From a virus (Duplodnaviria > Heunggongvirae > Uroviricota > Caudoviricetes), in the IMG/VR virus record IMGVR_UViG_3300028388_003891, positions 5,513 to 69,512 of that record: DNA of 64,000 nucleotides, one strand, 5' to 3'. How positions within the stretch are numbered: the stretch's first letter is position 1; the number at the start of each line of letters is the position of its first letter. Below, in pieces: positions 4,476 to 53,101 of the stretch. The position numbers and the translations under genes are program-made. The notes beneath the pieces were generated by a model. The model saw only the letters and a program-made list of their open reading frames with translations, was not told where the DNA came from and did not search any database.

Positions 4476-5483
4476 ATGTCCAACAAACTTGATCCTAAGG
4501 GTCTAGCATTTGCCATTGTTCTGATTAAAGAGCAAATCGCCAAGCTGTCAACAAAGTTTGATAGTCGCCTTGAAGAAGTAACTTTGACGCCTGGCCCTAA
4601 AGGGGAAAGAGGCGAACGAGGCCCCCGTGGTGAACAAGGACTGCAGGGTGAACGAGGTGCACGTGGTCGTCGTGGCGAAAAGGGCGACCAAGGACCCCAA
4701 GGGTTACAGGGGTTGCCTGGCAGTAAAGGAGACAGCGGCGAGCAAGGCCCTAAAGGCGAGCAAGGCCCTAAAGGCCCTAAAGGCGAGCAAGGCCCTCAAG
4801 GCCCTAAAGGCCCTAAAGGCGACAAAGGGGATCAAGGACCACAAGGCCCTAAAGGCCCTAAAGGCGAGCAAGGTGACCGTGGTCTAAAAGGAACTAGTGG
4901 CGACCAAGGCCCTAAAGGCGACAAAGGTGACCGAGGACCACATGGCCCTAAGGGCGACAAAGGTGACCGAGGACCACAAGGCCCTAAAGGCGACAAAGGA
5001 GATCAAGGACCGCCCGGCGAAACACCTGATATCACTGAGTTCATGTCCAAAGCTCAGGGACAGATCACGGCGTGGGAATCAAAGGCTAATAGAGCTCTAG
5101 CAACGTCCACGGCTGGCGGTGGTTCGTTTAAACTACTCGATAACAGCGACGTTGTTCGCAAGCAACTAAGCGAAGTTACTGACAAAGCAATCCTGATATA
5201 TGACGTAAATAAGGGTAAATTTGTAGTTAGTGACATTGAGGAAATTATACTTTCTCTTGGTCTTGGAGCCACACAGGTGCAGTACACACGTCTAATCGAC
5301 GCCGATGGCAATGACACATATATCGGCGAAGCAGTCCCCGGCAGTGATCCTAGTGCTGCAGTATGGCGCATCAAACGGGTGACAGAAGATCCTGTTACCG
5401 AAGACATTACCATTTTATGGGCTGATGGTTCTGCTGAGTTCACTTTCATCTGGGATGACCGACTGTCGTTCAATTATTCATAA
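4476..5483 (+). CDS. collagen-like (Gly-X-Y repeat) protein, probable virion decoration/fibre
   Basis: 335 aa; about 47 consecutive G-X-Y triplets ([19 protein letters not shown]...) from aa ~38-180, globular C-terminal domain; underlying DNA is a 9-nt periodic repeat. Confidence 0.8.
4560..5030 (+). repeat. tandem 9-bp periodic repeats (GGCCCTAAAGGCGAGCAA-type) encoding the collagen-like tract
   Basis: direct visual repetition of ggccctaaaggc / ggcgacaaaggtgaccgaggacca units. Confidence 0.8.
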
Positions 5484-5528: not shown

Positions 5529-7328
5529 ATGCCAACCATCACAGATCCGGATCTGTTGAATGATTCCGCTGTAAACACTGGGAGCAATGAAGTATTCATT
5601 GACCCGGCGTTACGCACGATTCGCCTTAACAACGGTTCCAATAACTTAGATGAAACGGGCGTAACAGGTCAGGCTCTTTACTCCTTTCTCAAAGAAGAAT
5701 GGAAAGATGATACCAAAGGCAAGAACCTAATCGCGTATCCGTTCCCCCTTGTCGCAATTACCCCAGAGCAATTTGAATTTCGATCTGGTTGGCAGCCTGC
5801 CAACGACAGCTCACGCAACTTGATTCGCAATGCTGGCTGGAGAGAATTTGCCACTAACAACACCACTCTGAACCGAGAGTACATTGGTACAATTTCGCTC
5901 GGTTCAATCGACGGCGACCAATCTCAAACGGGAGGCGGCGATCAGGATTTTGCGTACTACGCGTTCTTCGATACAAGTGGTGCACCAGTTGCTGGTCCTT
6001 TCAACTTTGATTTCCCAGGACCAGTCAACCAGCCTGTACAAACGTACGACAGTTCCTCTTACGACTACCGTACCAACATTCTAACGATGTTCATCCGTCA
6101 ACCTGGAAAAACGTATGATCAGCAATCTACGGTTCAGATTGGTATTCCAGCTGGTGCAACACTACCGTATAACACCCAGCGTTTCCCTCTACAGGAAGCT
6201 GTTGATCTGAACGTAACTGTGTCAGATGCCACGATTGTAGCTAATGAAGGCGCTGGTGAAAAATACGACAGTAGCGATGTAAACGGCCCCACAATACAGT
6301 ACCTCAGCGACTCCGAGCTTTCTAATACGTTCGGCTATACGCAGGATCTTGTGGATGGTCCACACGGCTTTGGTATCAAGATCTCTGCAGAAGATGGAAC
6401 GGGTGGCTCTCTATCGCTGCAAGAGCTATATTCTTGGGTACAATACAAACTACGTCAAGAAGTTAATATCGAAGACAGCGCTGGATCTACCAAAGTTGGT
6501 AAACTGCAGGACCGCTTGCTACAGTTCGTTGGTCCTACCCTTGAAACCTTGAACGCTACAAACCTTGATGGTGGTGGCACCGGCACAGCAATTATCAACT
6601 TCTCAAACACCGACATCAACAACATTGGGCTTCGGGACAACACAGAAACTCTTCGTCCGTTCCCAATTCTGTCTTCTGGTACTCTTTCATTTTCTGATGA
6701 AATCGTACTTGACAGCGCCAATGCTTCGTACTTTGTTTTCTTTGAGTACACCAAATCTACAAGCGTTTCTGATTTGACAATTTCAGGTGTTGGTCCTTCA
6801 GCTGGCGATCCAGCTGTTGACAGTGCTGAATTTTCTTCATCAGCAACAGAACTGCCCCTACTTGCAGCTGATGATTATTTCCGTGTAACAGGTGCTTCCG
6901 ATCCAAACAACAACCAAGTGTGGCAAGTATCAGTATACCGTGACTCCAGCTCGTTCTCTGCTGTGACTTACGACGATCTTCCCGCAGCAAACGAAGGTCC
7001 GTTTGCCGGCACCATTCGAGAGCACCCAATCAATTCACCTGGAGCCTTGTTGGTAGACAGTGCAGGTACAACAACACCAAATACAGGCGGAATCACCGGC
7101 ACGTTGACTGGCGGTATTTCATCTGTGGCATTCTCCTATGACTATACTAACAACAGTCAAGGGGGTCGACCAAGTGGTGTTAACGCAGACACGGTTAACA
7201 TCTTGATCCGTGCTATTGGCTTGGATAATGGATCGTTTGTGGAACTGGCAGGTCAGACAATTACTGATCAAGCACAGACGTACTCAATTATCTCGGCTAT
7301 TGAGCGTAACTACGACAACCCAGCGTAA
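5529..7328 (+). CDS. hypothetical virion protein (599 aa)
   Basis: long ORF in head/tail late region, near-consensus late promoter CATAAATA at 5479-5486, Ser/Thr/Gly-rich. Confidence 0.5.
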   Translation: MPTITDPDLLNDSAVNTGSNEVFIDPALRTIRLNNGSNNLDETGVTGQALYSFLKEEWKDDTKGKNLIAYPFPLVAITPEQFEFRSGWQPANDSSRNLIRNAGWREFATNNTTLNREYIGTISLGSIDGDQSQTGGGDQDFAYYAFFDTSGAPVAGPFNFDFPGPVNQPVQTYDSSSYDYRTNILTMFIRQPGKTYDQQSTVQIGIPAGATLPYNTQRFPLQEAVDLNVTVSDATIVANEGAGEKYDSSDVNGPTIQYLSDSELSNTFGYTQDLVDGPHGFGIKISAEDGTGGSLSLQELYSWVQYKLRQEVNIEDSAGSTKVGKLQDRLLQFVGPTLETLNATNLDGGGTGTAIINFSNTDINNIGLRDNTETLRPFPILSSGTLSFSDEIVLDSANASYFVFFEYTKSTSVSDLTISGVGPSAGDPAVDSAEFSSSATELPLLAADDYFRVTGASDPNNNQVWQVSVYRDSSSFSAVTYDDLPAANEGPFAGTIREHPINSPGALLVDSAGTTTPNTGGITGTLTGGISSVAFSYDYTNNSQGGRPSGVNADTVNILIRAIGLDNGSFVELAGQTITDQAQTYSIISAIERNYDNPA

Positions 7329-7342
7329 TGGCTGGATTTGAT

Positions 7343-7369
7343 GGGGCTGCATAGCAGCCCCCTATTTTA
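7343..7369 (+). terminator. rho-independent terminator-like hairpin
   Basis: GGGGCTGC-ATA-GCAGCCCC followed by CTATTTT. Confidence 0.5.
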
Positions 7370-7379
7370 GGAGTATACT

Positions 7380-7589
7380 ATGAGCACATACCTTACTGTT
7401 GAACAAGCAGCAGCGATAGTTGGATGCACACCTGATGAGCTGCTGTTCTATGCCCAGCAAGGTCGTCTGCGTCGCAGTCTTAATGAAACCGACACCACCA
7501 TCGACTGGCAATTCGTCTTTGAAGATGTGATAGCACTTAAAGATGCTCTTGAGCAGCAATCCACAGAAACGCAACTGCTCGAGGAATGA
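7380..7589 (+). CDS. hypothetical protein (69 aa)
   Basis: ORF with GGAG RBS (taggagtatactATG). Confidence 0.4.
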   Translation: MSTYLTVEQAAAIVGCTPDELLFYAQQGRLRRSLNETDTTIDWQFVFEDVIALKDALEQQSTETQLLEE

Positions 7590-7592
7590 GTT

Positions 7593-8054
7593 GTGGAATG
7601 TGGTGGCTGCACCGCATGTTGTGATGCGCTAGAAGTCAAGGACATCATTCTCGTCAAGCCAGCTGGCATCAAGTGTCCGCACTCTTGTGATATCGGCTGT
7701 AGCATATATGACAATCGACCACAAGGTTGTCGAGGCTTTGATTGTGTGTATCTTTTGGAACAGGATAGCCCATTAGAGCTTCGTCCTGACAAAACTGGAG
7801 TCATTTTCGAAAAAGTTACCACAAAAATATTCCTAGCACTAATTAAAGCAGAAAGCCTTGAAACGTGGGACACACCACTAATACGTCAATACATCAAACA
7901 ATTAAACAACAAGGGGATCTCCGTCGTTGTCAGCTCGTATGACAAGGGTTTGATGGAGGTGCACACAGCAGCTGCTCACACCCCTGACAAAGTTGTGCAA
8001 ATAACAATGAGATTGGCCAATCAATGGCAGCACCATCGTACTCAACAGACCTAG
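7593..8054 (+). CDS. cysteine-cluster protein (CxxCxxxCC, YkgJ/UPF0153-like metal-binding)
   Basis: N-terminal ECGGCTACCD... plus further Cys pairs (CPHSCDIGCS, CRGFDC). Confidence 0.45.
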   Translation: MECGGCTACCDALEVKDIILVKPAGIKCPHSCDIGCSIYDNRPQGCRGFDCVYLLEQDSPLELRPDKTGVIFEKVTTKIFLALIKAESLETWDTPLIRQYIKQLNNKGISVVVSSYDKGLMEVHTAAAHTPDKVVQITMRLANQWQHHRTQQT

Positions 8055-16164: not shown

Positions 16165-17607
16165 TCATGCAACCGCATAACGATCGCTCATGATTGTGTC
16201 AAGCATTACAGAATGCGGTGTCAACGTGCCTCCTAGCAACCCTTTAACGACTGCAGGACTTGCACCGCTGACGAGTGCTGCTCCGCTTTCATGCATCGTC
16301 ACAGGAATGTTATTGCCACGATCACACACATTCCACCATACAAGCTGAGGAACCTCGTATCCAGCTTTGCTGAACATCTCACGAGCCATTTCCTGTGCGG
16401 TAAAGTTAGTGCCTCGCCGTTGCACAAAGGGATGATCAAACTGCATATCGCTGATCACCAACAGATGCGTTGGCATGTCCTCTTGCGACAGATTAGCACG
16501 CTTTGCTGCAGTCAGTACTGCCTTAAATGTTTTCTGCAAATCGGTGTTCGCACCCCAGCCTGCAGATTCAACACTCTGCCAGCGCTGTTTCAGCGTTTTG
16601 CCTTTGATTACTTGCATTTGCGGACGCTCACTAAACGTAATGAACTGATCCTTAAAGATCGAAGTATTACGCTCGGCAAGGTACATTGCCAGAGACGTCG
16701 ACACGTCCATCGCTGTAACCGTTCCCGACCCCAGCGTTTGATTCATCGAGCACGACACGTCACAAACAACCATAAATCGAGCGTTGCTGTCGCCAATGTA
16801 ATCAGGCAGCGCTTTCCACTGTGCATCAGCCACTTGTGCATCACCGAGACGCAGTGATTTAACGATGTCGTATGGAAACACAGCACTTGCATTGACCTTG
16901 ACATCAGCATCCCCACGAGACAACTTTGCGCGGTACGAAGCATAGCCATCAGGATCGTGGCGGTAGAACGCTGCCTGGTAACGGGCTGCCGCAACCGACG
17001 GCACATGGCTGTAGGTGATCTGCGACCATTCATTGGCACACATACGCTGCTCGACAGTGTCGGACAGCGGCACAATCAATCTGCGCCACGCTTTTTCGTT
17101 GCGAACACCTGCTGCCTTAATAAGCGGCCGGGCCCCTTTCTTCACTTTACGTGGGGCCCACTTAGCCGCAAGACCATTGCCTTGCTCGATTGCTGTAACC
17201 CACAGCTCTGCTGCAAATGACTCGAGTGGTGTACCGAACGCCGCTTGAAGGTCGTCCCAGCGGCCAACTTCCGGAAGACGCTGTATTAGCGTCTGCGCTA
17301 CCTCTCGTAGCTCGGGGTTTGGTGCACCAGCAAGACCATTGATAATAAGGCGAACCGTTTCACGCTCGCCAGCACCACCACGAATGTCGCGGCCCCACAG
17401 CACAATACGCATTGCGTATTCTGGATTTTCCTGATACGCAGCCATAAACTGCCCAATCAGGTCTTTTCCCCGAGAAGAGCCTATCTGAAAAAACAGATCA
17501 ACGCAATCATTTAGCGAGCTGTGGAACGCTTCCATCCCATTCTCGGTGATCGTTGTGTTGGTCATTTGTGCCGCAAGTTTGCTTACTTGTGTCATAATAA
17601 TCTCCAA
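16165..17607 (-). CDS. vWA-domain protein, possibly Ro60/TROVE-like
   Basis: 480 aa; MIDAS motif VVCDVSCSMNQ close to Ro60 LLAIDVSASMNQ, C-terminal LLVISDMQFDHP strand, helical N-terminal ~300 aa; only long minus-strand gene in this region. Confidence 0.55.
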   Translation of the reverse strand: MEIIMTQVSKLAAQMTNTTITENGMEAFHSSLNDCVDLFFQIGSSRGKDLIGQFMAAYQENPEYAMRIVLWGRDIRGGAGERETVRLIINGLAGAPNPELREVAQTLIQRLPEVGRWDDLQAAFGTPLESFAAELWVTAIEQGNGLAAKWAPRKVKKGARPLIKAAGVRNEKAWRRLIVPLSDTVEQRMCANEWSQITYSHVPSVAAARYQAAFYRHDPDGYASYRAKLSRGDADVKVNASAVFPYDIVKSLRLGDAQVADAQWKALPDYIGDSNARFMVVCDVSCSMNQTLGSGTVTAMDVSTSLAMYLAERNTSIFKDQFITFSERPQMQVIKGKTLKQRWQSVESAGWGANTDLQKTFKAVLTAAKRANLSQEDMPTHLLVISDMQFDHPFVQRRGTNFTAQEMAREMFSKAGYEVPQLVWWNVCDRGNNIPVTMHESGAALVSGASPAVVKGLLGGTLTPHSVMLDTIMSDRYAVA

Positions 17608-22729: not shown

Positions 22730-24473
22730 GGATAACGTCATAATCACCTTCGAGAAAATACGATACAAAAATCTTTTGTCTGCTGGCAATCAGTGGATAG
22801 AGGTTGATCTGTCCGCACGCGCAACCACCTTGATCATAGGTGAGAATGGCGCTGGCAAGTCGACGATGCTCGACGCGCTGTCGTTTGCCTTATTCGGTAA
22901 GCCTCATCGCAACATCAATAAGCCAATGCTGATCAACAGTATCAATCAGCGCGAGTGCGAAGCGGAAGTCGAATTTACTGTCCACAATTCGAAGTACAAA
23001 ATTGTACGTGGTATGAAACCGACCAGATTTGAAATCTGGCGTGATGGCGAAAGAGTCAACCAAGACAGCAATAGCGCAGACGATCAGAAAATGGTCGAGT
23101 CGACAATTCTCGGTATGAATCACAAGACGTTTCATCAAGTTGTGGTGCTTGGATCGTCGACGTTTACTCCTTTTCTCCAATTATCTACTGCCCAACGACG
23201 TGTAGTAATTGAACAGCTGCTCGACATTTCAATTTTTGGTTCAATGAATCAAGTGGTCAAGCACCATATAAGCGATCTTAAAAGACAATATCAGGAGCAA
23301 ACTGTACACAATAATGCACTGCGTGACGCGATAAAAAGCGAGCAGCGTCATCGCGAGAATCTTGCATCTATCGTGGCACAAAACGAAGATGCCATTCAAC
23401 AACAAGTCGATCACCACAACGATGAAATTGCTAAACTGCGCGCAGCAAATCAAGCAATCAACGAACAATATGGTGGTGATTTGCAAGAAAGTGTTCTAAT
23501 AGCACTCGATGAACGGATCAAGCACTGTGATAAAATTAGCAGCTTGGTGCTCAAGCTACAATCGCAACGTAGCACGTTGGCCAAAGAGCGCACAGTGTTT
23601 GAGCGTGAGGGGCCATGCCCGACCTGCCATCAAGTGATGGATCATGAGACACGCGAAGCCAAACTTGGCGAAATAAGCAACCGCATTCCTGAGATTGAAA
23701 CGGCTCTGGAACAGTTGGTATCTAAACAACGAAAAGCACAGCAAGACGTTGGCGATCTTAGAACGCAGCTTGATCAGATCACTGCGCACCTCAAAGAGAT
23801 CGATGTCAATAATCTACAGATTGACAGCCATCAGCAATCGATCTCTAAGTTGCAGACTAACAAAGGTGGTTCTCATGACCAAGAGCTAAAAACGATTGAC
23901 GCCACAATTGCACGTAAAAGTGGCGAGCTAGTAAAGTGTATGGAGCAAGTAAACGACACGTTTACAACAATGCAGTATTACGACGTAATACAAGAGCTAC
24001 TTAAAGACACAGGAATCAAGGCGAAAGTAATCGATCAGTACTTGCCCGTAATCAATCAGCAGGTCAACAAATACCTGCAAGCTCTTGATTTGTTTGTTGA
24101 TTTTGAACTCGATAATGTTTTTACCGACACTATTCGTGCTCGCCACCGTGATGAAATGTCTTACCCTTCATTCAGCGAAGGTGAAAAAACGCGAATCGAT
24201 GTCGCGCTTCTTTTTGCGTGGCGCGAGGTGGCTAGACTAAAAAATAGTATAAGTACCAACCTACTGATCCTCGATGAAACATTCGACGCCTCACTCGACG
24301 GTGCAGGTGTTGATAACCTATTAGACGTTCTTTATGATACACGTCAATCAACGAACGTGTTCGTAATATCTCATAAGGCACGTCTTCAGGACAGGTTCGA
24401 TGCCACGATGCAGTTTACAAAACCATCGCTTTTTTCTTCATACACTATACTAGAGAATAATGAGTCAAACTAA
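22689..24473 (+). CDS. recombination endonuclease subunit (gp46, Rad50/SbcC-like ATPase)
   Basis: Walker A GENGAGKST, coiled-coil with CPTC zinc hook, signature SEGEKTRIDVALLF, Walker B LILDE; first in-frame ATG is 22689 but homology to T4 gp46 begins near 22737. Confidence 0.8.
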   Translation: MTLNKKRTNCRSYEDNVIITFEKIRYKNLLSAGNQWIEVDLSARATTLIIGENGAGKSTMLDALSFALFGKPHRNINKPMLINSINQRECEAEVEFTVHNSKYKIVRGMKPTRFEIWRDGERVNQDSNSADDQKMVESTILGMNHKTFHQVVVLGSSTFTPFLQLSTAQRRVVIEQLLDISIFGSMNQVVKHHISDLKRQYQEQTVHNNALRDAIKSEQRHRENLASIVAQNEDAIQQQVDHHNDEIAKLRAANQAINEQYGGDLQESVLIALDERIKHCDKISSLVLKLQSQRSTLAKERTVFEREGPCPTCHQVMDHETREAKLGEISNRIPEIETALEQLVSKQRKAQQDVGDLRTQLDQITAHLKEIDVNNLQIDSHQQSISKLQTNKGGSHDQELKTIDATIARKSGELVKCMEQVNDTFTTMQYYDVIQELLKDTGIKAKVIDQYLPVINQQVNKYLQALDLFVDFELDNVFTDTIRARHRDEMSYPSFSEGEKTRIDVALLFAWREVARLKNSISTNLLILDETFDASLDGAGVDNLLDVLYDTRQSTNVFVISHKARLQDRFDATMQFTKPSLFSSYTILENNESN

Positions 24474-25353
24474 AGAGAAAACGATCAGGTACACAGAGAT
24501 CTTTTACTCCCCTCAAGGCGAGGGGGAGCATACGGGCAAGATGACAGCATGGGTAAGGCTATTCAGTTGCAACCTTGAGTGCCGAGGGTTTGGACAACCG
24601 GACCCAGCAGATCCTAAAACGTATCACCCCGTCGGCAATGAACTCGATTTGTCAGATATCACTTCTCTTGAGCAACTGCAAGTTTTCCCTGTTGGGTGCG
24701 ACAGCGCCTACAGTGTTGCTAAACGATTTCGTCATCTAGCACATCAAGCCACAGCCAGCGAGATTGCTCAACAGCTAGTTGATCTGATACCTAATAACAG
24801 TTGGACAAATCAGCCTACTGGTAATGATATTCACTTAGCGTTCACAGGCGGAGAGCCTATGATGCAGCAGCGTGCCATCGCCGACATCATTGACGCTTTA
24901 ATCAGTCTCGGCCAGTGCCCTCTTAACGTCACAATCGAGACTAACGGAACCATGCCTACCACTGATCAGATTCGGCATGCGGTGCGAGCGATAGAGTCGC
25001 GTGGTGGTTCATGGTTCTGGTCTTTATCTCCTAAGCTACACAACACAGCTGGCGAGCCTACTGAAAAGGCGATCAAGCCTGATGTGGTGCATGAGTATCA
25101 AAAGCTGTCAGATAAAGGTCAGCTCAAGTTTGTCGTTAACGGGTCTAAAGCATCGTGGGATGAGCTTGATTCTACCTTAATTAAGTTTAGACAAAATGAC
25201 GTATTGTTTTCCGCGTGGGTGATGGGTGTCGGTGGTACTATCGAAAATCTCAGGCTGACCGAAGCTGACATTGCCGTGGAAGCAATTAAACGGGGTTATC
25301 ATTACTCGTCGAGAGTACACGCACATCTCTTTGGAAATGAATTAGGGACATAA
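24460..25353 (+). CDS. QueE-like radical-SAM enzyme (7-carboxy-7-deazaguanine synthase family, divergent)
   Basis: N-terminal EIFYSPQGEGEHTGKMTAWVRLFSCNLECRGFG matches QueE substrate/cluster region with variant Cys motif. Confidence 0.55.
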   Translation: MSQTKEKTIRYTEIFYSPQGEGEHTGKMTAWVRLFSCNLECRGFGQPDPADPKTYHPVGNELDLSDITSLEQLQVFPVGCDSAYSVAKRFRHLAHQATASEIAQQLVDLIPNNSWTNQPTGNDIHLAFTGGEPMMQQRAIADIIDALISLGQCPLNVTIETNGTMPTTDQIRHAVRAIESRGGSWFWSLSPKLHNTAGEPTEKAIKPDVVHEYQKLSDKGQLKFVVNGSKASWDELDSTLIKFRQNDVLFSAWVMGVGGTIENLRLTEADIAVEAIKRGYHYSSRVHAHLFGNELGT

Positions 25354-25354
25354 T

Positions 25355-25660
25355 ATGAATTTTTACAAACCCTTCACGGGACAAATTGTAGTATTGATGA
25401 CACCGATTGGCGAAATCGTTGGGCGATTTAAGACGGGGTCTGAGAACTGGGTCGAGCTAAAGGATCCGCGACTGTTCTTTGCATCAGGAGAGGGTCAAGG
25501 TGGTTTTACACCAGGGGTTTCACAAATCGGTGTTAGTGAACCAGATTCCTCACCTTTTTCTACTAGCCAGATCATCACCATCCAGATTGCACGAGATGAG
25601 GTTGCGCAAGCGTGGCAACAAGTAACAACTGGTTTGGTGGTACCGCAAGGAGCGTTGTAA
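25355..25660 (+). CDS. hypothetical protein (101 aa)
   Basis: ORF inside deazapurine cluster. Confidence 0.4.
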   Translation: MNFYKPFTGQIVVLMTPIGEIVGRFKTGSENWVELKDPRLFFASGEGQGGFTPGVSQIGVSEPDSSPFSTSQIITIQIARDEVAQAWQQVTTGLVVPQGAL

Positions 25661-26154
25661 TGCAACCTGTATCATACAAATTCGTGAGCACTAAAGAATA
25701 TATCGATGCCTTTCCTTGTGCCTATAGACAACACCGTGCCGACTCTCACTGTAATCTGATACACGGATATAGCTTTTCAATGAAGTTCTGGTTTGGCAGT
25801 GATGACCTTGATGTGCGCAATTGGGTAGCAGATTATGGCGGCCTTAAAGAGCTGAAAACCGTTTTACAGGAACAGTTCGATCACACTCTCCTCGTTGCGG
25901 AGGACGATCCTAAGATCCAAGTGTTCAAATTGCTCGAGCAACGCAATCTTGCACGGTTAACAATTCTACCTCGCCTTGGATGTGAAGGGCTAGCAGACAT
26001 GCTGTATAAATATGTGAACGGCGTCTACATCCCTGATTACTGGGGTCCTTCCGAAGCAGAGCGACTGTGGTGTTTTCGTGTTGAGGTACGGGAAACGCAA
26101 AGCAACATGGCCTACCGTGAAGGGCATCGCGAATGGAATGAAGAGCTGTTCTAA
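25660..26154 (+). CDS. queD: QueD (6-carboxy-5,6,7,8-tetrahydropterin synthase, T-fold)
   Basis: CAYRQH...CNLIHGYSF (Cx5HGH)...FDHTLL motifs; start ATG overlapping upstream stop (TAATG). Confidence 0.7.
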   Translation: MQPVSYKFVSTKEYIDAFPCAYRQHRADSHCNLIHGYSFSMKFWFGSDDLDVRNWVADYGGLKELKTVLQEQFDHTLLVAEDDPKIQVFKLLEQRNLARLTILPRLGCEGLADMLYKYVNGVYIPDYWGPSEAERLWCFRVEVRETQSNMAYREGHREWNEELF

Positions 26155-26265
26155 ACAACGAGTTTTCTATCTGTTGTTCCACGCAATGTGGGTTTTAGAT
26201 AGCCAAGGTACAGTCCGCCCTTGCTTCTTTCTACGGACGTTAAGCTAAACCCGAAAGGAGATTAC

Positions 26266-26934
26266 ATGTCTAAATCAAATCCCGACCTCGGTCGGCAAGT
26301 AAACGAGCACCTCGTGCAACTTGGAATTCATACCCCCGTTACCGATATGGTGATGGAAGATCGTGAAACCAAAATTGCAAAGGTCGCAGAACTCACTAGA
26401 GAAATGTTGGAGGTACTTGGTCTCGATCTCTCAGACGACAGCTTGGAAGAAACTCCAATGCGCGTTGCGAAGATGTACGTCGATGAGACTTTTGCCGGTC
26501 TTCGTTATGATACTTTTCCTAAATGCACCACAGTAGAAAACAAGTTCTGCCACGGTGATGAATTTGTCCTCGAGAAGAACATAACGCTATACAGCGACTG
26601 CGAACATCACCTTCGTCCTATTATTGGCAAAGCGCACATTGCGTACATACCAAAGGATAAAGTGATGGGGCTGTCAAAGTTGAATCGCATCACACAATAC
26701 TTCGCCAGGCGCCCGCAAGTGCAAGAGCGTCTTAATCAGCAAATTGCTCACTCAATCGCATTCATCACTGAAAGTGAAGATGTGATGGTAGTGATCGAAG
26801 CTGAACACACCTGTGTGTCCCAACGCGGTATTAAAGACACTTCAAGCTCAACTGTCACGGCTTGTTGCCTTGGTCAGTTTGGCATTCACAACAGCGAGCT
26901 GCGTAAAGAGGTTATGGCCAATATCAATAGGTAA
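26266..26934 (+). CDS. folE: GTP cyclohydrolase I (FolE)
   Basis: ETPMRVAKMY, CEHHLRP, GLSKLNRI, FARRPQVQERL, IEAEHTC motifs; GGAG RBS before ATG 26266. Confidence 0.85.
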   Translation: MSKSNPDLGRQVNEHLVQLGIHTPVTDMVMEDRETKIAKVAELTREMLEVLGLDLSDDSLEETPMRVAKMYVDETFAGLRYDTFPKCTTVENKFCHGDEFVLEKNITLYSDCEHHLRPIIGKAHIAYIPKDKVMGLSKLNRITQYFARRPQVQERLNQQIAHSIAFITESEDVMVVIEAEHTCVSQRGIKDTSSSTVTACCLGQFGIHNSELRKEVMANINR

Positions 26935-27350
26935 TGAATCAGCCATACAAGTTTTATATCGCCAAGGCAACAAATAACAAACACCCAATACCAGAAAACA
27001 AGCAGTTCTTGAAATTTGGCATTACGCACCATATGGATGCCGCCAAACGGTTTGACCCAACACAGGATGATGGGTACGACAAGAAGTATGAGGACTGGGA
27101 CTTTCGAATTATGTTCTCTTTGGTTTGCAAAACGCGAGAGCAGGCAGAACTGATCGAGTCGTATTGGCTCGGCGAAGTGTTTCCAGCTGACGGGCCCACT
27201 AAAGTGTGGGTTGAAAGTTATCTGGGGCTTGAAGATGATCAGTACTATTCGGATATGTCTGGTATAACGGAACTGCGCCTACTCAGCCAGAAACAGGCTG
27301 GGTGGGCGATTCGTAAGGCATATGAGCTGTACAAACCAAATCAAGGTTAA
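26934..27350 (+). CDS. GIY-YIG-like nuclease-domain protein
   Basis: YKFYIAK...FLKFGITH...R...KTREQAELIESYWL pattern (GIY / YIG / Arg / Glu helix). Confidence 0.4.
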   Translation: MNQPYKFYIAKATNNKHPIPENKQFLKFGITHHMDAAKRFDPTQDDGYDKKYEDWDFRIMFSLVCKTREQAELIESYWLGEVFPADGPTKVWVESYLGLEDDQYYSDMSGITELRLLSQKQAGWAIRKAYELYKPNQG

Positions 27351-27356
27351 TACATT

Positions 27357-27770
27357 ATGAATCAGCAAATGGGTACTGTTACATCGTACATTACTGTACG
27401 AACCGACTTTGAGGGGTATCACCGCTACAAGGGAGCAAGTGAAATCGACCCTCGACTAGAGTTTCTCGAGCATCGTCATCGACACAAGTTTTATGTCACA
27501 GTGACAATTTCCGTCACCCACGACGATCGCGAGCTTGAGTTTTTCTTGGTTAAGTGGGACCTGCGGGATTTCATCGACAGTCGCTTGATTAAGGGTCGCC
27601 AAAATGACACGATGATTGAGTCATGTGAAATGATTGCTAGATGCATCCTTGACGAGCATTTAATTCCAGCATACGGAACTGACAGAAGTTACTTCATCGT
27701 CGTGTCGGAAGATGGTGAAAACGATGGCGCCATCCACTACATTCCCCCTGCCACGGAGGTCCAACCATGA
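27357..27770 (+). CDS. second T-fold (QueD/PTPS-like) paralog
   Basis: DFEGYHRYKG ... LEHRHRHKFYVTVT resembles FEAAHR / HGH motifs of PTPS/QueD. Confidence 0.4.
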   Translation: MNQQMGTVTSYITVRTDFEGYHRYKGASEIDPRLEFLEHRHRHKFYVTVTISVTHDDRELEFFLVKWDLRDFIDSRLIKGRQNDTMIESCEMIARCILDEHLIPAYGTDRSYFIVVSEDGENDGAIHYIPPATEVQP

Positions 27771-28618
27771 GCCTCAGAAAGATTGATTTCTGTTACATTA
27801 TGCCAACGGCCCTACTGCCTAAATTCGGAAATCTTAGCAAGTCGCATCTTGTGTTAGCCCATCTTGTTGAGCAGGATGATACATACACCGAGTATTTCGC
27901 ACAGAGCGAAAAGTTCAAGATAATGGATAACAGCGCGTTTGAGATGTTTAAACAAGGGCGCGAGATGTATCCCTCTGACAAGCTGATCGAGATGGCGACT
28001 AGGTGCAAAGCTGATATGATCGTTATGTCAGACTATCCTAATGAACCTGCTAAAAAGACGATCGATGCTGCGAAGCGCCTTGCGTTCGAGTACAAAGAAG
28101 CTGGGTTTGAAACCTTCTTTGTGCCACAGAGCGTAGCTGGCGACAAGGATGGATACCTCAATTCAATTAGGTGGGGCCTTGAGTACTCTGACTTGATTGA
28201 TCGTATTGGACTGTCTATCCTCGGCGCTCCCAACGCGTATGGCGTGCTTCGCAACCCATTGCAGCGTACACTAGCTCGGTGGCGCGTACTTCACGAGCTA
28301 GATGTAGCAGGGGATCTAGTGTCACGCAACAAGCAGTTTCATTGTCTTGGTATGCTCGATGGACCCAACGAAATTTTGTTGCTCAAAGATTATGTCGCTA
28401 AGATTGCTTCGTGGGACACCTCGGCGCCTGTGTGGGCTGGATTGCATGGCATTACGTTTGATGAAACGCCGACTGGCTTAAAAGAAGGCAAGTTCGAGCG
28501 CGAGGTCGATTTTGACTACGGTAAGAATAGCCCAATCACCGACACCCAGCGACAATGTATCATGACCAACTGCAAGATGATACAAAACAACCTAAAGCAT
28601 GTGGAATACACACCATGA
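27767..28618 (+). CDS. DpdA/TGT-like (tRNA-guanine transglycosylase superfamily) DNA 7-deazaguanine transglycosylase candidate
   Basis: 283 aa in operon with folE/queD/queE; assignment by context and size rather than by a motif I can verify. Confidence 0.45.
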   Translation: MSLRKIDFCYIMPTALLPKFGNLSKSHLVLAHLVEQDDTYTEYFAQSEKFKIMDNSAFEMFKQGREMYPSDKLIEMATRCKADMIVMSDYPNEPAKKTIDAAKRLAFEYKEAGFETFFVPQSVAGDKDGYLNSIRWGLEYSDLIDRIGLSILGAPNAYGVLRNPLQRTLARWRVLHELDVAGDLVSRNKQFHCLGMLDGPNEILLLKDYVAKIASWDTSAPVWAGLHGITFDETPTGLKEGKFEREVDFDYGKNSPITDTQRQCIMTNCKMIQNNLKHVEYTP

Positions 28619-28947
28619 CCGACCAAAAAGAATTACGAGTTAAACGTGGAGAGTTAAAGATCATTGACGAGCTTCGTGATTATGTAATCGCGACGTACAA
28701 CCAGCACTATCGTACAGAAAATGAAGATGGTGATGAGATCCAAGTACTGGATATTTGGGAAGCACTCGATATGGATATTGCGGCGATGCATTCTAACATC
28801 GTCAAGTATGCCTTTCGTTACGGTCGCAAAAACGGGTACAATCGAAAAGATCTTTTCAAAATACTCCATTACACCGTGCTGTTGATCCACTACAGCGAAC
28901 AACGTGGGTTATTCACTGTAGTGGATCCACAGCTGGAGAGTGTGTAA
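28615..28947 (+). CDS. hypothetical protein (110 aa)
   Basis: ATGA-coupled ORF (internal Met of ORF 28555). Confidence 0.4.
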   Translation: MTDQKELRVKRGELKIIDELRDYVIATYNQHYRTENEDGDEIQVLDIWEALDMDIAAMHSNIVKYAFRYGRKNGYNRKDLFKILHYTVLLIHYSEQRGLFTVVDPQLESV

Positions 28948-29468
28948 TGAGTCTGCGTAATATAGCCCTTTCCACCAATCCAGCAGAGTTGTCTCATACT
29001 GAAGAGGATGATGTTCAGCCAAATGCTGTCGACATACGTCTCGATAAAGTGTGGCAAATTTCCAACGAGACGTTTACCCTCAGTGATAGTCACAAGGGGC
29101 ATCGTGGGTCCGAAGAGCTGTCGTTTACCCGTCATTTCCCCGACCATGAAGGCGAATGGATCGATCTATATCCAGGCAGCTATGAGTTTACCGCTAGAGG
29201 TACTGTGCTAGTTCCGCCTGGGTTCGCTGGGTGGGTAGTTACTCGAAGCACACTGAACCGTAATGGTGTCTTCATAACATCCGGCCTGTACGATAGCGGC
29301 TATCATGGAGTAATGGCCGGCGTAATACATGTATCTTGCGGTCCCTTTCTGGTTCAGCGAGGAACACGCATTGGTCAGTTTATACTTGTCGACGCTGAAA
29401 CATCTCATCAGTACGATGGCGATTACGGTTTGGGTAAAAAGCACGATGATAAGTACACGACTGCGTAG
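28947..29468 (+). CDS. dCTP deaminase/dUTPase-fold protein
   Basis: AVDIRLDKVW...VLVPPGFAGWVVTRSTLNRNGVFITSGLYDSGYHG...IGQFIL matches Dcd/dUTPase fold pattern. Confidence 0.6.
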   Translation: MSLRNIALSTNPAELSHTEEDDVQPNAVDIRLDKVWQISNETFTLSDSHKGHRGSEELSFTRHFPDHEGEWIDLYPGSYEFTARGTVLVPPGFAGWVVTRSTLNRNGVFITSGLYDSGYHGVMAGVIHVSCGPFLVQRGTRIGQFILVDAETSHQYDGDYGLGKKHDDKYTTA

Positions 29469-29576
29469 CACAATCTGGTAGTGCGCTGAACTCTAAATTC
29501 ATGAGATAACGGTTCAAATCCGTTCGCAGTCACCATATATACACCGCAATGACTAATGACTTTAAGGGAAACAAAC

Positions 29577-30799: not shown

Positions 30800-31104
30800 A
30801 TACGAGCAGTTGAACAACTACCCACCTCGATTTTAGACATTGGAACCAGAGTCCCAATGACGGACAAACCAGTCGCGGCACAGGCGATCAATATTGTTGT
30901 AGAACTGCGTGAAGCTCGAGATCATGAACTGAAACGATTGACTCGTCGCCAGTTGCAAAGTATCATTGATAAAGAAACTGCCCGACAAACACAGCGGAGG
31001 ACTACATCTGATGGCTATTGGCGAAGATCGTGATCCAATCTATGGAATAGTGTACGCATCTTGTACGCTAGTGATTGGCGGCCCGATTCTTGCATTTGCT
31101 GGTG

Positions 31105-31452
31105 GGGCGTTCCATTAACGAAATTCGATGAAGCACAACGAACGGTGCTAAGGACGGGGGTTCGATTCCCCCCACCTCCACCAAAAAGCATACTCTTCCC
31201 GCGAAAGCGGTGCGATGGAAGTCGTCATAATCAACCAAGGGAGTATGCTTTTTGATGGGGGTGCACTGGCTTCGACTTGGACTTAATAGCTTGTGTGGAG
31301 AATAGGTGCGGAAGCTACCTTAAACGCAACAAAGTAAAAAAGTGACGCAGCTAATGATGCTGTGTATGATGTGGCTCTAGCAGCCTGATCATACTGGGGA
31401 TTGACTATCCTTATTATCCAATAAGTCCGGGCAGGTTAAACCTGCCCGTTTT
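31105..31452 (+). ncRNA. ssrA: two-piece (circularly permuted) tmRNA gene (ssrA): acceptor piece ending CCA at 31183, excised stem-loop 31184-31256, coding piece from 31257 with tag ORF 31347-31388, terminator 31429-31452
   Basis: GGGGG-TTCGATT-CCCCC T-arm + CACCTCC-A-CCA; perfect 12-bp inverted repeat AAAAGCATACTC/GAGTATGCTTTT; GGGGGTG...GGCTTCGAC 5' piece with G3 opposite U70; tag GCAGCTAATGATGCTGTGTATGATGTGGCTCTAGCAGCCTGA = AANDAVYDVALAA; 5' boundary approximate. Confidence 0.75.
31429..31452 (+). terminator. rho-independent terminator ending tmRNA coding piece
   Basis: GGGCAGG-TTAAA-CCTGCCC + GTTTT. Confidence 0.75.
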
Positions 31453-31553
31453 AGTTTTCTAATTGTAAACGGCCCCTTCTGTTGAATTACGTTTGATAGA
31501 TACGTGACTGTATGGTTGCTGAAAAACAGCAATCCTTTGAAATGGAGATCATT

Positions 31554-43053: not shown

Positions 43054-43235
43054 CATTGGGGACAATGTGTATCATCATATTAATGTCTGCATGCTCGCAC
43101 ACTATTAGCAATACAGGCAGCCGAATAAAAGGACGACCTGTTACTGGATCATCTGAAGCTTACGTTGAAATGTGTAAGCGAGAGTTGATAGACAACCCCG
43201 ACACACCTCTTTGTCCGAAAAGTGTAGAACGATGA
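43054..43235 (+). CDS. putative small lipoprotein
   Basis: MCIIILMSAC lipobox-like; start uncertain. Confidence 0.3.
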
Positions 43236-43645
43236 ATGAACAACAGCAATTAGAAGCCGTGCAAGCCCTACATCGTACGATGTGGGGGCTATTCGATTAT
43301 CAGCACGACGAACGCACGTACCAACAGATAGAGCACTGGCGATCACATGCAGATGCTGTGTTGCACAACGAGCGGTTTACAGATGATTGTGACGGATACG
43401 CATGGACGGCTTGTGAGATATTGTTAGAAGAGGGGTTCAGCCCATCAAATGTGTTGTTTATCGTATGCAAAACAGAATTGAATGAGGGACACGCAGTATG
43501 TGGTGTCAACATTGGCGCTGACACATACATTGTTGATAACCGTTTCAAACACGTATACAAATGGACGGAACGAGAAGATTACCAGTGGGATTTCAAAATG
43601 AGCCTTGACCAGCCCGGTCAATGGTACGTGGTTACAAATGGCTGA
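43232..43645 (+). CDS. putative Cys-His-Asp peptidase-like protein
   Basis: DDCDGYAWTACEILLEEGF ... NEGHAVCGV suggests papain/transglutaminase-like triad. Confidence 0.35.
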   Translation: MNEQQQLEAVQALHRTMWGLFDYQHDERTYQQIEHWRSHADAVLHNERFTDDCDGYAWTACEILLEEGFSPSNVLFIVCKTELNEGHAVCGVNIGADTYIVDNRFKHVYKWTEREDYQWDFKMSLDQPGQWYVVTNG

Positions 43646-44323: not shown

Positions 44324-44517
44324 TCTTCAACGTACAAGAAATCACCGCCCTGATCGACAACGCGACAACGCGTCGGTCGCTTTACGATAGCGATGGTGAA
44401 GAGCACTGGGTTCCGTTTGTCGATCGTGTGGCTGTGTACAACGAACTGGTGTACAATCATAACCTGAGCCGTTTGCAAGCGGACGCAGTAATGAAAAAAT
44501 ACGAGCACTTGATGTAG
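44320..44517 (+). CDS. hypothetical protein (65 aa)
   Basis: coupled ORF. Confidence 0.35.
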   Translation: MIFNVQEITALIDNATTRRSLYDSDGEEHWVPFVDRVAVYNELVYNHNLSRLQADAVMKKYEHLM

Positions 44518-45020
44518 TGATGACACGGATCGAACAAGCTGAGTTATTTGCGGTTGAGGCCCACCAAGGGCAGGTTCGCAAGTACACAGGTCTACCGTAC
44601 GTCACGCATCCATTCGCGGTTGCGGAGATCGTAAAGACCGTCGACCACACTGAAGAAATGATCATCGCTTCTCTTCTACATGACACTGTGGAAGACACGG
44701 ATGTGTATCTGTTCCAGATTGCTCGCTTGTTCGGCGTTGATGTGTCAGTCCTCGTTTACTACACATCTGAGGTCAGCCAGAAGCATCACGGCAATCGAGC
44801 CGTTCGCAAAGCGATGGACAGGGAGCACTACGCTCGAGGTCCTGCTGACTCTCAGACCATCAAAGTCGCTGACTTGATCCATAACGCCGGATCGATCAAG
44901 AAATACGATCCCAAGTTTTGGAAAGTGTTTCGTGAAGAGAAAAGGGCGTTGTTAAACGCCCTTGTCCTTGCCGACCCAAAGCTGGTACAATTAGCATATA
45001 GGATCATTGAGGAGGAATGA
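44517..45020 (+). CDS. HD-domain (p)ppGpp hydrolase (small alarmone hydrolase, SpoT/Mesh1-like)
   Basis: AHQGQVRKYTGLPYVTHPFAVAEIV...ASLLHDTVEDT matches RelA/SpoT hydrolase HD motif. Confidence 0.7.
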   Translation: MMTRIEQAELFAVEAHQGQVRKYTGLPYVTHPFAVAEIVKTVDHTEEMIIASLLHDTVEDTDVYLFQIARLFGVDVSVLVYYTSEVSQKHHGNRAVRKAMDREHYARGPADSQTIKVADLIHNAGSIKKYDPKFWKVFREEKRALLNALVLADPKLVQLAYRIIEEE

Positions 45021-50275: not shown

Positions 50276-50361
50276 CGCGGGATATACAAGCGGTCAACGT
50301 GATAGGGCTCATAACCCTATACCTTAGTGTTTCGTGGGTTCGAATCCCACTCCCGCAACCA
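50276..50361 (+). tRNA. initiator tRNA-fMet-like (CAU), atypical 14-nt variable region
   Basis: acceptor CGCGGGA/TCCCGCA with C1-A72 mismatch, anticodon stem-loop GGG-CTCATAA-CCC, 3' end CCCGCAACCA identical to E. coli tRNAfMet; T-arm GTGGG-TTCGAAT-CCCAC. Confidence 0.55.
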
Positions 50362-50734
50362 AATTAACAGGCTGCCTTTCACATAGCCTGTTTTGACCGG
50401 CCCCTGTTTTTCCTCCTCCTTTTCGCAGGGGCCGGTCACCCTCTCCCCCGTTGCCCTCAATCTGACATTAAGAGATAATGTCTATGTTGAATTGAGGAGG
50501 CACCAATGAGCAAATACATTGTTTTCCAAATCGAAGTGACCCGCGCCATGGCCGACAAGATCGAGGTGTGATCGACATCAGAGAGTCGATAATGCCGACC
50601 CACGTCACACTGGCGATTGAAGACGGCCGCCTGATGGTCGTCGACGGCAGTGGGTATGACTTCATCATTGAGGAAGAAGATGAAACACAATCCAGTAGCT
50701 AAACACGCACACAAGTTCAACAAATGCGCCAAGC

Positions 50735-50992
50735 ATGTTGACCGTAAGGCGCGTTCTAAGCGAGGATATCGCAAACACAGGAGAATTGATAATGGGTGTT
50801 GAGAACACAAATGTGGATACCAAAGAGCTCATGGTCGAGATTGATCTTGAACTTGGATCACTTGCGGCGCGGATCGCAACCGGCCTAACGTACAGCGAAA
50901 TCGTCGCGTTCGTTGAAATGATTGATAGCGAGGTATCCGACACCGAGTTTACGGACCAACTGATTAACGCCGTCCTACGCCTCAATGATTAA
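50735..50992 (+). CDS. hypothetical protein (85 aa)
   Basis: ORF inside tRNA array. Confidence 0.3.
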   Translation: MLTVRRVLSEDIANTGELIMGVENTNVDTKELMVEIDLELGSLAARIATGLTYSEIVAFVEMIDSEVSDTEFTDQLINAVLRLND

Positions 50993-51044
50993 CTGCCCTG
51001 ATGAGTCTTACAGGAGACGAAACGCGCTGATAGCGCGTCGGCAG
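50993..51044 (+). ncRNA. type I hammerhead ribozyme (HHR-2) whose cleavage site is the 5' end of the downstream tRNA
   Basis: CUGCC-CUGAUGA-GUCU/UACAGG/AGAC-GAAA-CGCGC/UGAUA/GCGCG-UC^-GGCAG; cleavage after C51039. Confidence 0.75.
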
Positions 51045-51121
51045 AGTACACCCGTAACTGGTAGCGGCCCGCACTGTAACTGCGCATAACGTTGGGGGTT
51101 CGAATCCCTCCTCTGCCACCA
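51040..51121 (+). tRNA. tRNA with GUA anticodon (Tyr-type), 8-nt variable region, irregular D region
   Basis: acceptor GGCAGAG/CTCTGCC, anticodon stem CGCA/TGCG loop CTGTAAC, T-arm GGGGG-TTCGAAT-CCCTC, A73, CCA. Confidence 0.5.
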
Positions 51122-51136
51122 AATTGAAAGGAGTTT

Positions 51137-51499
51137 GTGATGAATAAACGCTTCACGATTATCGCTGCGATAGTGATAGGCATCGGTAGTTTGTTTACTC
51201 TTTACGAAGGGGTCAAAGCTATCCGGCAGTATGCGTGGAACCATGAGGTTGTTGACGCTCGTCCCGTCGGTCCCGTTCGCACTGAGCAACGATTGATCGA
51301 ATGTGAGTATACAGGAATATGCTCTCGCTTTGATCCGCTGAACGGCGAGATGAGAACGGGGTTATCATCCTTTTGTCGCGGTCACCGTCCGGTCGTTGCT
51401 CGCATACAAGATGTGCAAGAGACGCTTCGTAACGGCGAGCAACGAATTCGAGAAGAGATAATGAGTCGCACAATCGTCGAGGGCGTAGCATGCAGATGA
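51137..51499 (+). CDS. membrane-anchored protein (120 aa)
   Basis: N-terminal TM helix. Confidence 0.4.
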   Translation: MMNKRFTIIAAIVIGIGSLFTLYEGVKAIRQYAWNHEVVDARPVGPVRTEQRLIECEYTGICSRFDPLNGEMRTGLSSFCRGHRPVVARIQDVQETLRNGEQRIREEIMSRTIVEGVACR

Positions 51500-51533
51500 G
51501 CAAAGACGTAACCAAAGAGATTCTCAAAACGAA

Positions 51534-51607
51534 AGGGGATTAGCATAACGGTAGTGCGTCGGACTCTGACTCCGAATGTGGTGGTTCAATTCCACCATCC
51601 CCCGCCA
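51534..51607 (+). tRNA. tRNA-Gln (CUG)
   Basis: acceptor aGGGGAT/ATCCCCC, anticodon stem TCGGA/TCCGA loop CTCTGAC, T-arm GGTGG-TTCAATT-CCACC, G73, CCA. Confidence 0.65.
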
Positions 51608-51612
51608 ACAAA

Positions 51613-51688
51613 GCAGCTTTAGCAATGATGGTTCATGCGCTGGCCTGAAGTCCCAGATATCTCGGTTCGATCCCGAGGAGCTGCACCA
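51613..51688 (+). tRNA. tRNA-Phe (GAA)
   Basis: acceptor GCAGCTT/GAGCTGC, loop CTGAAGT, T-arm CTCGG-TTCGATC-CCGAG, A73, CCA. Confidence 0.65.
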
Positions 51689-51708
51689 AACAACAAAGGC
51701 GATGAGCA

Positions 51709-51969: not shown

Positions 51970-51970
51970 A

Positions 51971-53100: not shown

Positions 53101-53101
53101 G

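Follow-up and report, generated by a model that had tools for sequence, protein, structure and literature searches.

A predicted phiST-type 7-deazaguanine DNA-modification module without QueC in a T4-like phage

What base does a phage make when its 7-deazaguanine genes do not include QueC? The question is raised by a gene block at positions 24460 to 29468 of a 64-kb stretch of caudoviricete phage DNA (IMG/VR record IMGVR_UViG_3300028388_003891, positions 5,513 to 69,512), which in its full length we call the window. A sequence-only reading had proposed that this block is a 7-deazaguanine DNA-modification cluster with FolE, QueD, QueE and a candidate transglycosylase resembling tRNA-guanine transglycosylase (TGT) or DpdA. 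Our analysis supports that proposal. The same reading had expected the inserted base to be the QueE product, 7-carboxy-7-deazaguanine (CDG), or a new derivative made by open reading frames (ORFs) without assigned function, and this expectation did not survive. We find that the cluster is explained by the published pathway of Cellulophaga phage phiST, and that 7-deazaguanine is not a new base. With a probability of roughly 0.7, we read the block as a phiST-type module that places 2'-deoxy-7-deazaguanosine (dDG) in phage DNA by base exchange in the DNA itself.

The missing QueC and the second T-fold protein

Is QueC truly missing? When E. coli QueC was compared with the six frames of the window by tblastn and phmmer, the best match had an E value of 0.5, and the PP-loop motif [SG]GGxD[ST] occurs in none of the six frames. 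Neither QueC nor QueF nor a deoxynucleoside monophosphate (dNMP) kinase was detected when Pfam was run on the cluster ORFs and on 40 other window ORFs (those of about 130 amino acids or more, except gp46, gp47 and the minus-strand ORF 61603-62196). The earlier statement that the window has no PP-loop QueC was thus correct. The window is part of an 87-kb contig from a larger genome. Perhaps QueC is encoded elsewhere in it? We compared the module with five metagenomic contigs and with 80 related IMG/VR loci (909,932 bp); counts of loci given below refer to these 80. QueC had no match in the 80 loci, and in the complete 170,978-bp genome of Rhizobium phage RHph_I1_18, which carries the module, it was found neither by tblastn (E <= 1) nor in the annotation. 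We conclude that modules of this kind as a rule lack QueC. Because the absence is general, a QueC gene elsewhere in this phage genome is unlikely.

The sequence-only reading had also noted a second T-fold paralog beside QueD. Its motif, LEHRHRHKF, fits LxxxHRHxF. This pattern, in place of CxxxHGH, is the signature of DpdL, the QueD paralog of phiST (CGPG_00067), which has been proposed to decarboxylate CDG in phages that have FolE, QueD, QueE and DpdA and lack QueC (Cui, Hutinet et al., Nucleic Acids Res. 2023; PMC10516641). In tblastn searches the window protein matched CGPG_00067 with an E value of 4e-10, and further homologs were found in Acidovorax phage ACP17, Synechococcus phage BUCT-ZZ01, PA5oct-like Pseudomonas phages and others. 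The aligned proteins have LxxxHRHxF, HDDRxxEF, SCE and EDGEN blocks in common, which distinguish the group from the QueD proteins of the same phages. A DpdL homolog is present in 74 of the 80 loci; LxxxHRHxF is kept in 73 of 74 related DpdL proteins, the one exception being cut by a contig end. The gene lies directly upstream of the transglycosylase gene, into which it extends by 4 nt, and the same adjacency was seen in every locus with at least 2.5 kb of upstream sequence (52/52). By its sequence, the extra T-fold paralog is a member of the known DpdL family: it is present, as claimed, but it is not novel. Hence, the "missing QueC" is explained, because a dedicated predicted decarboxylase is encoded instead.

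DpdL also occurs in other settings. In seven phiST-type loci (L021, at 7074-7997, L105, L106, L108 and L111-L113) it is fused to an AAA_18 P-loop kinase-like domain, with the sequence LAFPHRHMF ... GPLCSGKT, and in another locus (L020) the fusion partner of AAA_18 is instead a DNA ligase. In the loci of ACP17 and BUCT-ZZ01 that we compared, DpdL is present and no DpdA3 of either subgroup described below was found. Glycosyltransferase-like (GT1/GT4) genes flank DpdL in both (ACP17, L006 3668-5967; BUCT-ZZ01, L007 3367-7524).

The dDG system of phiST comprises FolE, QueD, QueE, DpdL (CGPG_00067) and the transglycosylase DpdA3 (CGPG_00065), and its virion DNA contains 302,000 dDG per 10^6 nucleotides, with no deoxyguanosine (dG) peak and no 2'-deoxy-7-carboxy-7-deazaguanosine (dCDG) (PMC10516641). 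Since these five functions are shared with phiST, which has dDG in its DNA and no QueC, we predict by analogy that the base here is 7-deazaguanine, and neither CDG nor a new derivative. FolE would convert GTP to dihydroneopterin triphosphate, from which QueD would make 6-carboxytetrahydropterin and QueE would make CDG. DpdL would then strip off the carboxyl group to give 7-deazaguanine, and QueC, which would make preQ0, would be unnecessary. Lastly, the DpdA3-type enzyme would swap guanine for 7-deazaguanine, with dDG replacing much or all of the dG. Restriction enzymes would be blunted by such a replacement, as would other defences that sense G from its N7 side in the major groove. Two proteins encoded further downstream, a Dcd-fold pyrophosphatase and a DUF3310 protein, probably act on the nucleotide pool, in dGTP removal and/or in the supply or processing of monophosphates. 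Family-level chemistry is established for the FolE, QueD and QueE steps; for DpdL and DpdA3, the literature offers predictions that attempts in E. coli failed to reconstitute. Homology and fold of each part, the absence of QueC and the linkage of the genes were observed directly.

Do the two remaining ORFs between the pathway genes, orf101 and orf138, tailor the base? Homologs are found in only 3 (orf101) and 16 (orf138) of the 80 loci. We conclude that both are accessory and that the pathway needs neither. We therefore rejected them as tailoring enzymes, given this poor conservation and the apparent nuclease fold of orf138. Where relatives do have orf138, it occupies the identical place, between FolE and DpdL (for example, in L038, L053 and L095). 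T4 EndoII, a GIY-YIG protein as orf138 appears to be, nicks unmodified host DNA, and by analogy a role of orf138 against G-containing DNA is conceivable.

These results bear on the expectation that the pathway halts at CDG, with the DNA carrying dCDG or a new derivative made by the unassigned ORFs. QueC is indeed absent, dCDG is natural in Sulfolobus virus STSV-2, and DpdA2 of Vibrio phage VH7D can insert CDG, though inefficiently, when queC is mutated (PMC10516641). However, a DpdL with an intact motif overlaps the transglycosylase gene, phiST has the same genes and contains dDG with dCDG undetected, and orf101 and orf138 are missing from most modules, the latter having, it appears, a nuclease fold and not a base-modifying one. 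We consider an end point at CDG improbable.

Could the host supply the missing step? The phage would then only boost CDG, and host QueC, possibly with QueF, would complete preQ0 or preQ1 for insertion. Most bacteria encode QueC, and phage pathways are often incomplete in ways that a host could complement. But this would leave unexplained why DpdL is strictly conserved and why QueC is lacking from all 80 loci and from a complete genome. The phiST precedent is contrary as well, and phages with preQ0-derived bases, such as nt-1 and VH7D, use DpdA2 (PMC10516641). Completion by the host is, in our judgment, more improbable still. A pathway that ends in 7-deazaguanine through DpdL is the reading that we carry forward.

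A divergent DpdA3-type transglycosylase

The 283-amino-acid candidate transglycosylase has no match in Pfam, PHROGs or NCBIfam, and a hidden Markov model (HMM) of its family gave only a spurious match among Protein Data Bank sequences. It is not an orphan: a metagenomic protein collection holds 1611 relatives (E <= 0.001), and relatives occur in 436 IMG/VR stretches. An AlphaFold2 model built from an alignment of 52 relatives (pLDDT 94) is a (beta/alpha)8 barrel of the TGT type, with little beyond the barrel. Profile-profile comparison (hhalign) aligned the family with that of phiST DpdA3 (CGPG_00065) over 253 columns, with 99.8% probability and an E value of 3e-28, and the window protein is matched along its full length by the HMM of the phiST family (E 4e-16). 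The single-sequence BLASTP match between the two proteins is marginal (E 0.06), which marks the window protein as a distinct subgroup. We call it DpdA3x. The candidate named in the sequence-only reading can now be placed more closely, as a divergent DpdA3-type 7-deazaguanine transglycosylase, with an activity predicted from these comparisons.

Two aspartates never vary across the family, D54 (in MDNSAFE) and D217 (in WDTSA); in phiST DpdA3 their aligned counterparts are D51 and D205. The MDNSAFE and WDTSA motifs resemble the catalytic DSGGFQ (D102 in Zymomonas mobilis) and DMFDC (D280) of TGT, to which they may correspond. The Zn-binding CxCxxC...H of TGT has no counterpart: neither DpdA3 family alignment contains invariant cysteines. 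Lack of the Zn subdomain is a trait of the whole DpdA3 group. Both families are acidic, with median isoelectric points of 4.8 and 5.2.

These features also bear on whether the cluster modifies tRNA instead of DNA. The Que genes have long been interpreted in terms of tRNA, and this phage encodes about 29 tRNAs, which a queuosine or archaeosine-like module could serve. However, the TGT-fold protein clusters with DpdA3 and not with the tRNA enzymes, at 283 amino acids it is little more than a barrel, and its family lacks invariant Zn-type cysteines. Moreover, 7-deazaguanine itself is not a known tRNA base. In phiST it is the DNA that is fully modified. A tRNA-modification module seems to us scarcely credible here, and DNA is the expected target.

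Among 50,697 phage records, tblastn with DpdA3x found matches in only five. Four are close (40-49% identity, with at least 86% of the query covered): Vibrio phage D479, Aeromonas phage Ahp1_CNU-2021, Rhizobium phage RHph_I1_18 and Vibrio phage Bakedbeans, all of them T4-like or large phages. The fifth, in Weizmannia phage Youna2, is distant (29% identity). In RHph_I1_18 (L003; MN988519.1, 42807-44075), DpdA3x is fused to DUF3310 in a protein of 422 amino acids that is annotated just as "DUF3310 domain-containing protein", and the gene after the fusion is annotated as a dUTPase.

Several points weigh against our assignment of the block to the phiST type. DpdA3x and phiST DpdA3 share only about 22% identity when aligned by hhalign, and they could differ in substrate. 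Neither DpdA3 family gave a significant hhalign match to the single E. coli Tgt sequence, so that the catalytic aspartates are assigned from motif resemblance only. QueC absence was seen directly for a 64-kb window of a larger genome. The predicted identity of the base is drawn from phiST by analogy, for this phage as for every other DpdA3x carrier. Finally, dDG was not obtained in E. coli with the phiST or ACP17 genes (PMC10516641).

Nucleotide-pool partners of DpdA3 modules

How constant is the module? The order QueE-QueD-FolE-DpdL-DpdA3x-(DUF3310 or dNMP kinase [DNMK])-Dcd-fold gene was found in three of the four cultured phages that are close carriers of DpdA3x, in the five metagenomic contigs and in most of the 80 loci; in Bakedbeans the genes are present, yet dispersed. 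All four close carriers encode DpdL and the Dcd-fold protein, and the complete RHph_I1_18 genome has QueE, QueD, FolE, DpdL, the DpdA3x::DUF3310 fusion and the Dcd-fold gene. A Dcd-fold gene follows within 2.5 kb of DpdA3x in all 60 loci with that much downstream sequence. Between the two lies a DUF3310 gene in 26 of these loci and a dNMP kinase gene of the PF21448 type in 19; neither was detected in the other 15. In 8 of the 80 loci, and also in L015 (8466-9425), the type IB enzyme FolE2 (PF02649) stands in for FolE (GTP cyclohydrolase IA). This swap fits selection for the pathway and not for particular genes.

The Dcd-fold protein (DCDx) had been named in the sequence-only reading for its dCTP-deaminase fold. 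The fold was confirmed (Table 1), with additional matches to PF00692 (E 5e-7) and to the archaeal-type dUTPase model NF002598 (E 6e-23, below the cutoff of that model), but the deaminase glutamate is absent. GVMAGV is aligned to HITLEL of Mycobacterium tuberculosis Dcd:Dut, the catalytic glutamate of whose TLE motif we take to be E129; the family alignment gives the same result, and none of the relatives has a Glu at this position. The triphosphate-binding motifs are kept, as RSTLNRNG (S/T-L-x-R-x-G) and SGLYDSGY (D-x-G-Y/F). We therefore ruled out a dCTP deaminase. From its sequence, the protein is presumably a deoxynucleoside triphosphate pyrophosphatase, to which we assign no base specificity. 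As for its neighbour, PHROG matches of the DUF3310 protein fall on the DUF3310 part of "nucleotide kinase" families, and fusions of this domain to phage nucleotide kinases occur elsewhere.

Does the pairing of DpdA3x with DCDx simply reflect shared phage ancestry? DCDx has homologs (E <= 1e-5) in 4 of the 50,697 phage records, and these are exactly the four close DpdA3x carriers. As a control we used gp46, which matches 3469 records. The 40 best listed belong to cyanophages, Sinorhizobium phiM12-like phages, Methylophilales Melnitz phages and one unclassified phage, and the four DpdA3x carriers are not among them. The genes that flank the module vary between loci as well. These two results indicate that the pairing is not just a product of the ancestry that the host phages share. 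Shared ancestry as its cause is thus weakened, since the listed nearest relatives of gp46 are absent from the DpdA3x and DCDx searches.

A similar association holds for the phiST type. In all 14 phiST-type DpdA3 loci, a nucleoside triphosphate (NTP) pyrophosphatase is encoded between FolE and DpdA3: MazG in five, a Dcd-fold protein in nine, and never both together. These Dcd-fold proteins are 23-32% identical to that of the window and likewise lack the deaminase glutamate. In phiST itself, the MazG-like CGPG_00068 and the AAA_18 P-loop protein CGPG_00066 flank DpdL and DpdA3. The MazG/dUTPase-like similarity in phiST has been noted with no role assigned, and homologs of CGPG_00066 were not reported in other 7-deazaguanine phages (PMC10516641). 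As far as our searches show, the set of DpdA3, NTP pyrophosphatase and kinase or DUF3310 partner is undescribed in the searchable literature, the supplementary tables of PMC10516641 aside. Of the literature that we found on DpdA3, DpdL, DUF3310 and pre-replicative or pool routes, only the 2019 and 2023 papers of the Hutinet and Cui groups touch on mechanism; a 2025 Roseobacter paper concerns an ordinary QueC/QueF set.

A small phosphoribosyltransferase (PF00156; XGPRT in the BUCT-ZZ01 annotation) is encoded in 18 of the 80 DpdA3x loci and in most phiST-like loci of the Dcd type (examples are L009 7236-7664, L013 6117-6617, L014 4991-5443, L021 6084-6614 and L007 1450-1911). It could serve to recycle released guanine or to synthesize 7-deazaguanine nucleotides.

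Might 7-deazaguanine be exchanged on the deoxynucleotide, before replication, and then be incorporated by the polymerase as 7-deaza-dGTP? The Dcd-fold enzyme, or the MazG-fold enzyme of some phiST-type loci, would convert dGTP to dGMP, at once removing the competitor and supplying the substrate. DNMK, the P-loop protein or a DUF3310-associated kinase, together with host nucleoside diphosphate kinase, would then yield 7-deaza-dGTP. The final base would be the same. Such a scheme would parallel the hydroxymethylcytosine pathway of T4, with its dCTPase gp56, gp42 and the dNMP kinase gp1.

The linkages just described speak for exchange in the pool: a pyrophosphatase gene accompanies DpdA3x or phiST-type DpdA3 in every locus that could be scored, kinase or DUF3310 genes often lie in between, and DCDx is confined to DpdA3x carriers in a way that shared ancestry does not suffice to explain. 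The fusions of DpdL to AAA_18 and of DpdA3x to DUF3310 point the same way, as do the acidity of both DpdA3 families and their lack of invariant Zn-type cysteines. In addition, replacement is complete in DpdA3 phages, yet plasmids in E. coli were not modified by DpdA3, and free ADG nucleoside was reported in CP220-infected cells (PMC10516641). The invariable pyrophosphatase, the kinase partners, the fusions, the plasmid failure and the free ADG would all fit nucleotide-pool steps better.

Against this stand several arguments. The association of Dcd-fold and MazG proteins with DpdA3 suggests nucleotide-pool steps, but it is a matter of linkage, which does not establish mechanism. We know of no TGT-family enzyme that acts on free nucleotides. 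The P-loop protein could be an ATPase helper, like DpdB for bacterial DpdA, and the pyrophosphatase might be a housekeeping dUTPase carried along with the module. A DNMK homolog was found neither in the window nor in RHph_I1_18. Furthermore, post-replicative insertion is the published conclusion (PMC10516641). We regard exchange in the nucleotide pool as a tentative alternative and retain exchange in DNA as our reading of the module.

The gene block, its surroundings and related systems

Its gene content assigns the window to a T4-like phage, with genes for tail sheath, tail tube, portal, prohead protease and gp23 major capsid protein; UvsY, UvsW, gp47, gp46, clamp loader, RegA, gp43 polymerase and UvsX; and a gp41-type helicase, a DNA ligase and Rnl2, besides the tRNAs. 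The packed plus-strand block lies between gp46 (end 24473) and the clamp-loader genes (from 34052). The module is thus inserted at the variable region of a T4-like phage between gp46 and the clamp/clamp-loader genes. No near-identical DNA match to the block was found in the 50,697 phage records. The FolE, QueD, QueE and TGT/DpdA-like genes stand where the sequence-only reading had put them (Table 1). Neighbouring genes overlap by 1-14 nt or are 1-6 nt apart, and the sole larger gap, of 111 nt, separates QueD from FolE. This packing fits the proposal of one operon; promoter-like and terminator-like sites in the block are at chance level and are uninformative on operon structure. The stop codons of the cluster are ordinary (six TAA, two TGA and one TAG).

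Table 1. Genes of the predicted modification module and their supporting matches (positions in the window)
Feature	Coordinates	Strand	Evidence
QueE-type radical-SAM CDG synthase, 297 aa	24460..25353	+	phrog_2076, E 1e-46
orf101, function unknown	25355..25660	+	no Pfam, PHROG or NCBIfam match
QueD (6-carboxytetrahydropterin synthase), 164 aa from ATG	25660..26154	+	PF01242, E 1e-13; phrog_2389, E 3e-34
FolE, GTP cyclohydrolase I, 222 aa from ATG	26266..26934	+	PF01227, E 2e-59
orf138, small stand-alone protein, probable GIY-YIG fold	26934..27350	+	
DpdL, QueD-paralogous T-fold protein	27357..27770	+	PTPS, E 0.005; phrog_17812, E 4e-19
DpdA3-type TGT-fold protein (DpdA3x), 283 aa	27767..28618	+	profile-profile comparison
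DUF3310 protein, 110 aa from ATG	28615..28947	+	PF11753, E 1e-7
Dcd/dUTPase-fold protein (DCDx)	28947..29468	+	PF22769, E 6e-16

For the early pathway genes, the identifications stood and two motifs had to be corrected. FolE is a clear case, with a score of 261 bits against NF006824 (cutoff, 202). QueD is securely matched, but its motif is not Cx5HGH: the alignment gives CNLIHGY (Cx3HGY), and CxxxHGY is found in 41 of 44 related QueD proteins. The radical-SAM protein is QueE-like, as proposed. Several NCBIfam QueE models match it at about 1e-11, each below its cutoff, and it is 40-43% identical to QueE of Vibrio phage nt-1, VH7D-type phages and Ahp1. Its cluster cysteines, previously placed in a single noncanonical motif, are C37-x3-C41-x38-C80 by alignment, with an insertion between the second and third cysteines. 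The same insertion is present in QueE of Aeromonas phage Ahp1 and of Synechococcus phage BUCT-ZZ01, and 36 of 42 related metagenomic QueE proteins have a Cx3Cx34-38C pattern.

Several neighbouring features were recorded. A tRNA with anticodon CUA, amber-suppressor-like, lies at 29459-29535 (+; labelled "Pyl" by ARAGORN; Rfam tRNA, 66 bits) and overlaps the TAG stop (29466-29468) of the Dcd-fold gene; RHph_I1_18 has a tRNA(cta) too. A permuted tmRNA gene of the two-piece type follows at 31123-31388 (+; ARAGORN, 31091-31479; Rfam RF04321, 95 bits against a gathering threshold of 47), with the tag peptide DAANDAVYDVALAA. One tRNA feature in the RHph_I1_18 record is noted as "transfer-messenger RNA, SsrA". 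The permuted tmRNA type may be a pointer to the host group. At 50276-60482 (+), 28 tRNA genes for most of the amino acids form an array with short ORFs scattered through it. Substantial minus-strand ORFs are very few; one (16165-17607) is found between the major capsid gene and uvsY, and its DUF2828/DUF7788 product weakly matches a Ro60-type vWA domain (TROVE/Ro60-like). A collagen-repeat protein (4476-5483) adjoins the portal gene, and a BTLCP transglutaminase-like cysteine protease and an HD_4 domain protein are encoded at 43211-43645 and 44517-45020.

How does this module compare with known systems? Like the window, phiST has the five functions and no QueC, an LxxxHRHxF DpdL and an NTP pyrophosphatase inside the module, and profile-profile comparison puts the two transglycosylases in one family. 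Phage phiST differs in being a 79-kb Cbastvirus, as opposed to a T4-like myovirus, and in gene order; its pyrophosphatase has the MazG fold instead of the Dcd fold, it has an AAA_18 P-loop protein where the window has DUF3310, and its DpdA3 is divergent, as noted above. The phiST base was measured chemically; that of the window is predicted from the genes. Campylobacter phage CP220 and Flavobacterium phage immuto_2-6A share the DpdA3 family and complete replacement of G, by dADG and fdPreQ1, but have QueC* or QueC/QueF/DpdN, other bases and no DpdL (PMC10516641). The bacterial Dpd system (DpdA/DpdB/DpdC) and phage DpdA1 and DpdA2 (9g, CAjan, nt-1 and VH7D) likewise exchange G by a TGT-fold enzyme. 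They insert preQ0 and require QueC, their replacement is partial (under 0.1% to 30%), their proteins are longer (7ui4 chain, 413 residues), and the bacterial enzyme needs the DpdB ATPase.

In the T4 hydroxymethylcytosine pathway and in Z-genome phages (PurZ, MazZ and DatZ), replacement is complete, and a deoxynucleoside triphosphate pyrophosphatase and a dNMP kinase are tied to the base-replacement enzyme. The likeness is one of analogy: the enzymes of the key steps are non-homologous, and the pool mechanism is proven there, whereas here it is a hypothesis.

Our results extend the predicted dDG pathway to a lineage of T4-like phages with abundant metagenomic relatives. In the records of RHph_I1_18, Ahp1_CNU-2021, D479 and Bakedbeans, the same genes are not annotated as a DNA-modification system. 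The finding that an NTP pyrophosphatase is invariable in DpdA3 modules, and a kinase-like or DUF3310 partner frequent, bears on how DpdA3 replaces all G and on why heterologous tests failed. That DpdA3-type systems at large are nucleotide-pool pathways, and not purely post-replicative ones, is a possibility that we put forward with some doubt. If it is true, DpdA3 would be the first TGT-family enzyme to act on a free nucleotide, and these modules would be the purine counterpart of the T4 hydroxymethylcytosine and Z-genome pathways.

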